Below are positions 4,525-61,976 of a DNA stretch of 64,000 nucleotides, piece after piece. The position numbers and the translations under genes are program-made. Positions within the stretch are counted from its first letter, which is position 1, and each line of letters starts with the position of its first letter. The stretch is from Felis catus (lineage: Eukaryota), in contig NC_058368.1 of the NCBI RefSeq assembly GCF_018350175.1, positions 248,001 through 312,000 of the forward strand, in the 5' to 3' direction. Under the pieces are notes generated by a model that had not been told where the DNA came from, did no database searches, and was given only the letters and a program-made list of their open reading frames with translations.

Positions 4525-4717
4525 TTCTCAGCCAGTGTCTGCAGTGCCCAGCGGGATACTTCTGCCCCAACCAAGCCACCCAACCCATCCCATGCCAGCC
4601 AGGCACATTTAGCCCGAATCCAGGCCAGGATGAAACCACAGACTGTGTTCCATGCCCAGCAGGCAAGGCCTGTACCCAGGCTGGGCTGACTCAGCCAGAT
4701 GCAGAGTGCACACCGGG
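4525..4717 (+). CDS. Exon 1 (in-window numbering), Cys-rich repeats
   Basis: ctctccccag|..GG|gtaagg, phase 1-2, [49 protein letters not shown]; alternative acceptors nearby make the 5' boundary uncertain. Confidence 0.8.

Positions 4718-61976: not shown

Follow-up and report, generated by a model that had tools for sequence, protein, structure and literature searches.

The closest described systems

ELAPOR1 and ELAPOR2 are proteins with a few GCC2/GCC3 repeats, a mannose-6-phosphate-receptor-homology (MRH-like) region and a short tail. The Chlamydomonas mastigoneme protein Mst1 assembles into a filament and is not known to span the membrane itself. Here we describe a stretch of 64,000 nucleotides (nt) of Felis catus (assembly GCF_018350175.1, contig NC_058368.1, called C1 below, positions 248,001 to 312,000 of the forward strand), referred to as the window, which holds most of a giant gene for a membrane protein with a very long array of the same repeat. 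Positions are counted from the first letter of the window, those upstream of it being negative. The gene is almost certainly the felid orthologue of rodent 'predicted gene 9195' (Gm9195) and of the fish genes that bear the name si:ch211-286b4.4.

The comparison with described proteins runs along the repeat. The cat protein and ELAPOR1 are both single-pass membrane proteins with the PF07699 disulfide module, but the cat protein has about 86 modules, a predicted cupredoxin-like domain and a long tail with a YDKLEDQ motif, and no other shared Pfam family was found in four orthologues. With Mst1 it shares a long array of similar cysteine-rich modules, which in Mst1 builds the extended filament outside the flagellum. 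The repeat also occurs in very long arrays, at 34% identity, in a Toxoplasma 'GCC2 and GCC3 domain-containing protein' (P0140) and in a Heterosigma protein (P0082), but the cupredoxin-like domain and the tail were not found there by search with hidden Markov models (HMMs); because this C-terminal module was not found, both are taken as repeat-sharing proteins and not as orthologues.

The gene model and its ends

The open frames of the + strand hold dozens of stretches of about 150 nt that are rich in CPxGxYC-type motifs. Exon chains were built with a dynamic-programming program of our own, in which candidates bounded by AG and by GT or GC in open frames were scored by per-codon BLOSUM support (tblastn of fetched proteins) plus simple splice-site matrices, and chained with checks of phase and split codons; the retained model demanded support from at least four proteins. 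The homologue set behind it comprised 147 fetched proteins, whose tblastn high-scoring segment pairs (HSPs) all lie on the + strand (30,101/30,101, none on the - strand). The first chain under the four-protein rule had 58 GT-AG exons and 9,516 nt, with no internal stop within the window. After correction the model spans 4525..61976 with 58 coding exons (e1 to e58) and 9,354 nt, is stop-free and has GT-AG ends in every intron. Two boundaries were revised by means of cysteines kept in orthologues (the start of e42, 42158, and the end of e48, 51603), and those of e16, e28, e42 and e48 remain ambiguous. With an optional exon at 1358-1459 the window holds 59 exons and 9,456 nt. The preliminary description of the locus, made from its letters alone, had counted 60 exons and 9,483 nt; the giant in-phase gene that it proposed is real, and the two counts lie about 1% apart.

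A non-felid protein matches 57 of the 58 exons (at least 60% identity over at least 80% of the exon), and the remaining one, e10, is matched by felid models only. No disabled exons hidden in introns were found, as the HSPs of at least 60% identity outside the exons were all intron-spanning or single-species artefacts, and the uncovered stretches of eight orthologues came down to threshold effects or gene ends. Two candidate features were rejected: a terminal read-through stop at 62027-62029 is an artefact of a model forced to end inside the window, and the candidate exon 45380-45552 is false, having been copied from a single-species annotation. Introns are mostly in phase 1 (36/57), and 22 of the 56 internal exons are symmetric 1-1, a bias that fits exon duplication. 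Because so many exons are symmetric, predicted isoforms can drop exons and yet stay in frame.

The gene had been thought complete within 4525..61976, which it is not. Position 4525 is a splice acceptor (ctctccccag/tt) and 61976 precedes a strong donor (ctag/gtgaga); both are internal splice sites, so the window carries the middle 92% of the gene, with a signal-peptide exon upstream and five exons downstream. The orthologues run about 250 residues past '...PWQHPLG', and the last 2 kb of the window do not encode these. In the flanking sequence they are found in GT-AG exons at window-relative 64096-64211, 65013-65131, 68505-68634 and 75302-75439 and in a final exon at 76803-77051, whose stop gives the C-terminus seen in the Panthera and Prionailurus models. 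At the other end, 6.4 kb upstream of the window, a signal-peptide exon (MLQPGLWMALAPLLGALSA) with a GTGAGC donor lies at -6419 to -6362. Its identity to the N-terminus of the otter model is 95%, and from its phase-1 end it reads in frame into the acceptor at 4525. The full gene model has 64 coding exons, 10,164 nt and 3,387 amino acids (aa) over about 83.5 kb, all introns being GT-AG, with no internal stop. The exon at 1358-1459 fits between the signal-peptide exon and 4525 with the frame unchanged and would make a 65-exon gene. The window is thus exons 2-59 of the full gene, or 2-60 with the optional exon. The coding sequence had also been described as intact, and this holds both in the window and in all 64 exons.

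An in-frame ATG at 4503 is the start of the Lynx model; the upstream signal-peptide exon is more likely the true start. Just 5' of e1, at 4353-4503, the frame reads PW*MPMATLLPAL and has in-frame ATGs at 4374, 4380 and 4503; this stretch is weakly similar to the bat signal peptide (…LWMALAPLLAAL), but it is interrupted by a stop.

Orthology, neighbourhood and conservation

Two mouse predicted genes had been named as similar. Gm9195 proved right, through the Peromyscus 'Predicted gene 9195' (P0044) and the Cricetulus 'putative gene 9195' (P0032), and Gm32742 appeared in no output. The Peromyscus protein is colinear with the cat gene over 37 exons (76.9% identity over 2,012 aligned residues, with positions that rise from 26 to 2503), and the Cricetulus protein has 75% identity in a conserved exon. 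Among felids, Panthera pardus shows 97.9% identity over 2,188 aligned residues and Lynx 99.4%. Colinearity is seen exon by exon with Panthera, Neofelis, Prionailurus and Lynx, at 97-100% in most exons, and also with otter, fox, seal, hyena, bats, Peromyscus, mangabey and camelids. A protein search with the non-repeat exon region 57452-57715 listed 40 matches, all vertebrate, with felid models first (89-93%), followed by seal, hyena, dog, camelids, bats, horse, rodents and lizards. Furthermore, the 120 matches listed out of 813 for a bat protein include long models in mammals, birds, reptiles, frogs, fish and shark. The cat gene has the exon order, the C-terminal module and the ATP12A neighbourhood of the Gm9195 group without any substantive difference, and is the same gene. 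The felid models of this group are partial, with 2,490-2,627 aa in Panthera and Neofelis and 1,286 aa in Lynx against the 3,387 aa found here.

The gene lies about 0.24-0.33 Mb from the start of the 239-Mb contig C1. Its end is at about C1:325,051, and ATP12A-like exons follow on the same strand 81 kb downstream (C1:406,266-422,561), with 78-87% identity to a dolphin model. The dolphin (P0011) and sheep (P0296) models fuse the gene with ATP12A. The C-terminal part of the gene matches this single locus in the genome in a strict first-pass search, which gives a lower bound on the number of copies.

That automated annotation would split or mislabel such a gene was rightly foreseen. Besides the ATP12A fusions, its models go under the names of zonadhesin or zonadhesin-like, SCO-spondin, MEGF6, Notch3-like, SCUBE3 and SVEP1. 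These named proteins are likewise cysteine-rich and extracellular, and the domains that define them are of the MAM, VWD, TIL and mucin, TSR and LDLa, EGF, CUB and sushi types. A Pfam search for zonadhesin-type domains in the models called 'zonadhesin-like' (P0043) and 'zonadhesin' (P0058), together with P0049 and P0051, gave PF07699 and a weak NCD3G match only. The labels are rejected as mislabels, no Pfam domain beyond these two having been found in the four orthologues.

Conservation was gauged by comparing cysteines with all other residues in exon alignments of at least 60% identity (at least 85% for felids) and at least 90% coverage. Against the otter, 1 of 223 cysteines is changed compared with 13.7% of the other residues; the corresponding figures are 0/176 and 13.8% for the fox, 1/211 and 22.0% for the bat, 2/191 and 25.4% for Peromyscus, 0/186 and 22.9% for the mangabey, and 0/193 and 2.3% for Panthera pardus. 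Cysteines kept by at least two of ten orthologues and lost in the cat model number five among 288 positions, three of which are explained by the choice of exon boundary. Judged by these alignments, evolution has clearly kept the disulfide scaffold, and the residues between the cysteines change fast.

The repeat array, the membrane-proximal domain and the tail

The CPxGxxC repeats, non-repeat domain, single transmembrane helix and tail of more than 150 aa set out in the preliminary description were all recovered. The protein of the first 58-exon chain (3,171 aa) has 285 cysteines (9%) and a single hydrophobic segment at about residues 2957-2985. Between residues 15 and 2537 it carries 86 CxxGxxC motifs, 60 of them CPxGxxC, and a cysteine-rich linker follows. 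Of 15 open reading frames (ORFs) of the window, nine match PF07699 (Ephrin_rec_like, GCC2_GCC3) at E<0.01; two pass the curated cut-off of 23.1 bits (23.2 and 27.5 bits) and seven more reach 17.6-21.5 bits. The orthologues P0043, P0049, P0058 and P0051 score 24.8-99.1 bits, and PF07699 is the sole family above its curated cut-off in these four, the NCD3G row having 16.8 bits against a cut-off of 38.9.

Structures were predicted from two alignments, the first headed by a felid fragment (P0002) and the second by a rat fragment (P0027). The parts predicted with confidence are a repeat module, a beta-sandwich (predicted local distance difference test score, pLDDT, about 90 in the rat-led model), the membrane helix and a 55-residue tail helix. 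The repeat module superposes on Elapor1 (cryo-electron microscopy structures 9vql and 9vqm) with Z 8.9, a root-mean-square deviation (rmsd) of 2.8 over 70 residues and 31% identity. Foldseek with the first structure model also places Elapor1 at rank 1 (E 3.5e-3), and the cysteine-rich domain of EphA2 (8trt_E) appears at E 4.3e-2, both being matches of the repeat. The module matches the Chlamydomonas mastigoneme protein Mst1 (8tx1_A) as well, with Z 7.7 over 71 residues and 28% identity.

Downstream of the array the non-repeat ectodomain begins on the + strand with e48 (51458..51603), which is cysteine-rich with EGF-like spacing and for which the donor CAG/GTAACA at 51604 is preferred over that at 51646; e49 (52117..52244) and e50 (52970..53114) continue it, both supported by the exon chain and homologue matches. 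The beta-sandwich begins in e51 (54258..54390; exon chain and structure models) and runs through e52 (54709..54870; exon chain, structure model and alignment), with the conserved cysteine of IPNPVxCL, e53 (57050..57176), which holds a sequence block and has 89 non-felid supporters, and e54 (57484..57695; protein search and alignment), the most conserved extracellular stretch, a block that ends in a cysteine. A conserved cysteine pair, C84/C177 in the numbering of P0027, probably forms a disulfide, to judge from the alignments.

In the rat-led model the top 10 VIA rows for the beta-sandwich are all cupredoxins (Z 8.1-5.7, 85-97 residues aligned), on target chains of 95-123 residues plus one nitrite reductase of 425 residues. 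The best are pseudoazurin (1pmy; Z 8.1, rmsd 3.0, 97/123 residues) and plastocyanin (7zqe_M; Z 7.7, 91/98 residues). The felid-led model gives plastocyanin at Z 7.0 and a second match at Z 6.9, and the listed Foldseek rows of both models are nearly all cupredoxin-fold by title, with probability up to 0.99. With blue copper proteins and phytocyanins (pseudoazurin, plastocyanin and stellacyanin 1jer, Z 8.1-6.0) the domain shares the eight-stranded Greek-key beta-sandwich, but it differs in having no copper ligands and no Pfam cupredoxin match, at an identity of 10-20%.

Type-1 copper sites use a His plus Cys, His and Met in the loop between the last two strands. In the cat the loop after the GTYVF strand (FRDNRLPES), judged from sequence to be the corresponding one, has no Cys, His or Met. 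Alignments of 20 and 54 sequences show Asp as the conserved residue of this loop, and in them neither H106 nor H146 is invariant. Searches of four orthologues (E<=0.01) and of eight distant members (E<=0.001) turned up no Pfam copper-binding family. A site for copper or another metal was rejected, as histidines conserved in vertebrates vary in distant members. On the predicted structures, the membrane-proximal domain is cupredoxin-like in fold only, without a copper site. Ephrins are a known use of the cupredoxin fold without copper.

The transmembrane helix and a juxtamembrane stretch are encoded by e55 (58237..58399; hydrophobicity and structure model), and e56 (58842..58924; exon chain and homologue match) encodes a cytoplasmic linker. 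The cytoplasmic helix with the nearly invariant YDKLEDQ motif lies in e57 (61532..61692; structure model and alignment), and e58 (61811..61976), identified by its donor, is the last exon in the window, past which the gene runs on. In the full model the cytoplasmic tail has 419 aa, about 168 of them encoded in the window. Its helix is predicted over 55 residues with pLDDT 83-93, and in 54 sequences, down to 25% identity, D307, L309, E310, D311 and Q312 of the motif are invariant while Y306 and K308 are conserved in at least 90%. A homodimer prediction of the membrane helix plus tail helix scored 0.02. No related solved structure emerged from a sequence-profile search of the PDB (14 rows, the best at E 0.028, helical or coiled-coil and judged noise), and the look-alikes of the non-repeat domain in the Protein Atlas were unnamed clusters only, with a best score of 0.89.

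Age and distribution

Of the 147 fetched proteins, 112 matched an HMM of the cupredoxin-like domain and 100 one of the tail helix; the matches include the annelid Owenia and the mollusc Dreissena. The repeat-sharing proteins of a ctenophore, Toxoplasma and Heterosigma gave no match to either model. A HMMER scan with the rat fragment over 1.84 billion cluster representatives returned 657 matches at E<=0.001, of which 293 have E<=1e-10, and many matched proteins are 2,000-7,800 aa long. Among 30 that were looked up, the named holders are a crinoid, a frog, Chromosphaera perkinsii, Fabomonas tropica, Andalucia godoyi (two proteins), Entosiphon sulcatum, Incisomonas marina and Kipferlia bialata. 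The C-terminal module is therefore found in jakobid, euglenid, metamonad, stramenopile and ancyromonad proteins, and the suggestion that the family is ancient is upheld, since bilaterian invertebrates and protists from several supergroups have the module. An Andalucia protein (P0224), crinoid P0167, P0185 and P0201 carry PF07699 upstream of it, while in P0227 PF07699 is present but far from the module. Since repeats and module stand together in Andalucia and crinoid proteins, the repeats-plus-module architecture predates animals.

Within vertebrates, a profile search for long proteins gave 74 matches, almost all of them vertebrate, plus weaker bird paralogues. A second and more distant set in birds (P0298-P0300) has 26-28% identity to the rat fragment and the same C-terminal module, which indicates at least one old paralogue of the family in some vertebrates. 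No human or ape protein stood among the matches listed in the three vertebrate searches (40; 120 of 813; 74), while lemur, tamarin and mangabey models were present. The preliminary description had called the family 'retained in some mammals', and these protein lists are suggestive, and only suggestive, of a gene that may be lost from the human and ape lineage.

Function and rival explanations

The gene had been described as uncharacterised, and the literature agrees, as it holds incidental mentions only under the names Gm9195, ch211-286b4.4 and GCC2_GCC3. No paper joining 'GCC2 and GCC3' with cilia was found, and none of the 'GCC2GCC3' papers concerns the Gm9195 family; the 'zonadhesin-like' literature, among the matches listed, is all on VWD-type proteins. 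In the extracts concerned, Gm9195 is part of a mouse natural killer T (NKT)-cell gene signature and stands in a table of proximal elements enriched in inner hair cells (HCs) by assay for transposase-accessible chromatin with sequencing (ATAC-seq), in the 'not HC-enriched' column. An extract of a bioRxiv preprint (10.1101/650218) has zebrafish si:ch211-286b4.4 higher in testis than in ovary.

The proposed mechanism follows the order of the parts. A cleavable signal peptide is followed by about 2,500 aa of some 86 short, disulfide-braced, TNFR-like modules, a cysteine-rich linker and the cupredoxin-like domain; next come a single transmembrane helix and a tail of 419 aa, with YDKLEDQ in its first long helix. 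By analogy with the modules of Elapor1 and of the mastigoneme filament, the repeat array would stand out from the cell surface as a long stiff rod, and the cupredoxin-like domain, membrane helix and tail helix would couple this rod to a conserved intracellular partner. The protein would then be a surface tether, a spacer or a contact or mechanical sensor, rather than an enzyme or a kinase receptor. We lean narrowly towards this rod-plus-coupler mechanism, which is drawn from analogy.

A more specific proposal makes the protein a ciliary, flagellar or sperm surface component, an ancient flagellum-associated stalk whose presence tracks motile cilia. It is consistent with the zebrafish testis signal in the preprint extract, with the resemblance of the repeat module to the mastigoneme protein, and with the protist holders Andalucia, Entosiphon, Fabomonas, Incisomonas and Kipferlia, which we take to be flagellates. 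However, the named protist proteins are only seven (six species) among 30 and protist collections are rich in flagellates, the zebrafish orthology depends on NCBI name transfer to other fish, and the two mouse extracts on Gm9195 do not point to cilia. We regard this proposal as possible and on the whole doubtful. Its extended form is less likely again: a rod receptor as old as the last eukaryotic common ancestor (LECA) on the ciliary or flagellar membrane, with YDKLEDQ docking to ciliary or cortical machinery and with loss or silencing in humans and apes. If this were true, the mammalian site would be sperm or multiciliated cells, and the human and ape loss would explain the neglect of the gene.

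That the locus is a functional protein-coding gene, orthologous to Gm9195, is probably the best explanation overall, and for function in this cat-family species by itself our confidence is slightly higher. Several observations weigh against this picture or parts of it. The splice sites come from our own model and from the automated models of other species, not from transcripts. Among 24 sequencing runs listed for the locus, the RNA-labelled ones are gut or 'mammal' metatranscriptomes, with 41-94% of the sampled words, and because the stretch is about three-quarters intron these matches are most likely host DNA carry-over. NCBI felid models omit e28-e30, e38-e39 and the 5' exons. Degenerate repeats occur in e9 and e10, the latter of which is matched by no non-felid protein. 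An exon of 109 nt that the otter and bat models use (-3193 to -3085, C1:244,807-244,915) has an in-frame TAG in the cat; it sits between the signal-peptide exon and e2, and those models use it instead of e1. In another frame it resembles the repeat of e1 (FCPLGYFF..SCQPRPTG), and by this resemblance it looks like a decayed duplicate of e1. The cupredoxin match is moderate, with no Foldseek E<=0.001 and a best Z (8.1) in the common range. Neither mouse extract on Gm9195 points to cilia or sperm.

Some of these observations would be expected of a unitary pseudogene, or of a gene decaying in felids whose open frame survives through recency and skippable exons: the degenerate e9 and e10, the TAG in the 109-nt exon, the five exons and the 5' end missing from felid models, and the 22 of 56 internal exons in phase 1-1, whose skipping conceals damage. 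Against this, the 64 exons hold no stop and no frameshift over 10,164 nt, and the signal peptide, the membrane helix, the tail motifs and the native stop show no damage. For the TAG-bearing exon, e1 offers an intact substitute of the same phase. Furthermore, the cysteines are unchanged against Panthera pardus (0/193, others 2.3%), and across orders none to two cysteines are changed against 14-25% of other residues. Decay is therefore very improbable, and a functional gene is preferred. Equally improbable is an endosome or lysosome sorting or signalling receptor of the ELAPOR type rather than a surface rod: in structure the repeat module comes closest to Elapor1 (Z 8.9, Foldseek rank 1) and both proteins are single-pass with PF07699 repeats, but no Pfam family beyond PF07699 reaches the curated cut-off in the four orthologues (NCD3G 16.8 bits vs 38.9), and the cat protein departs from the ELAPOR layout in the number of its modules (about 86), in its cupredoxin-like domain and in its helical tail of 419 aa; the likeness is one of a single repeat type.

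Exon coordinates and non-coding features

The repeat exons all lie on the + strand and, where nothing else is named, each is supported by the exon chain and a homologue match. The optional exon at 1358..1459 (GHFCPDGAITMPCLARTFES..., phase 1-1) is a degenerate repeat with 43.8% identity to the N-terminal region of a mangabey model (P0073). The first repeat exon of the chain is e1 (4525..4717), whose acceptor joins the signal-peptide exon in phase 1. It is followed by e2 (5089..5225), e3 (5573..5797), e4 (6136..6277), e5 (8682..8805), e6 (9173..9307), e7 (10062..10214) and e8 (11276..11477). The second half of e9 (12182..12322; one non-felid supporter) is degenerate and has lost its cysteines, and e10 (12425..12571) is a degenerate repeat with felid models only and no non-felid supporter. 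Regular repeats resume with e11 (14356..14482), e12 (15180..15319), e13 (16936..17139), e14 (17754..17903) and e15 (18113..18292). A weak acceptor and an alternative start at 19003 mark e16 (18979..19119), after which come e17 (19651..19800), e18 (19993..20208), e19 (21220..21363), e20 (21884..22025), e21 (22341..22555), e22 (22779..23027), e23 (24443..24549), e24 (25716..25869), e25 (26036..26135), e26 (26582..26748) and e27 (26963..27136).

Three consecutive repeat exons are skipped in Panthera models: e28 (27619..27795), which has a weak acceptor, e29 (28787..28907) and e30 (29318..29517), the ORF of which reaches the PF07699 cut-off. Next are e31 (30640..30864), e32 (31813..31962), e33 (32545..32648), e34 (33459..33670), e35 (34412..34632), e36 (35668..35814) and e37 (36452..36616), and then two more that Panthera models skip, e38 (37070..37221) and e39 (37548..37716). 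The array continues through e40 (39839..39965), e41 (41527..41663) and e42 (42158..42283; exon chain and cysteine check), the start of which is preferred over 42113 in the same phase, to e43 (42387..42557), e44 (42657..42881), e45 (43136..43262) and e46 (44093..44292). The last repeat exon, e47 (44958..45170), has the best PF07699 score of the window (27.5 bits).

The longest intron (45171-51457, 6,287 nt) separates the array from the non-repeat ectodomain. Its GC content is 39-45%, compared with about 52-54% elsewhere, and it is probably filled with old retroelement sequence. Six tandem CCCTAA copies, the telomere-type hexamer on the opposite strand, stand in it at 51326-51361, about 100 nt 5' of e48. 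A (TTTC)n microsatellite of about 55 copies is intronic at 16394-16609, and (CA)n, (TC)n and CTTC arrays are found at 38978-39015, 53358-53401, 59852-59886 and 37783-37839. The stretches 3706-3983 and 55661-55869 have near-identical open-frame translations, with a related stretch at about 53250-53405; from their sequence, the two look like copies of a carnivore short interspersed repeat with simple-repeat tails.

Significance for the family

The gene itself is not new, as many vertebrates already have automated models of it, with names that are wrong or empty. As far as the searches reach, what appears to be new is the membrane-proximal fold, the invariant tail motif and the spread of the family beyond animals. 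It is notable how little is known of so large and so old a protein, of which Pfam covers the repeats alone. Given that no human or ape protein is among the matches listed, the gene is possibly a case of lineage-specific loss, and its mouse and zebrafish orthologues make it experimentally approachable. Taken across the sequences compared, the C-terminal module suggests a conserved link from cell surface to cytoplasm that may have been inherited from early eukaryotes.

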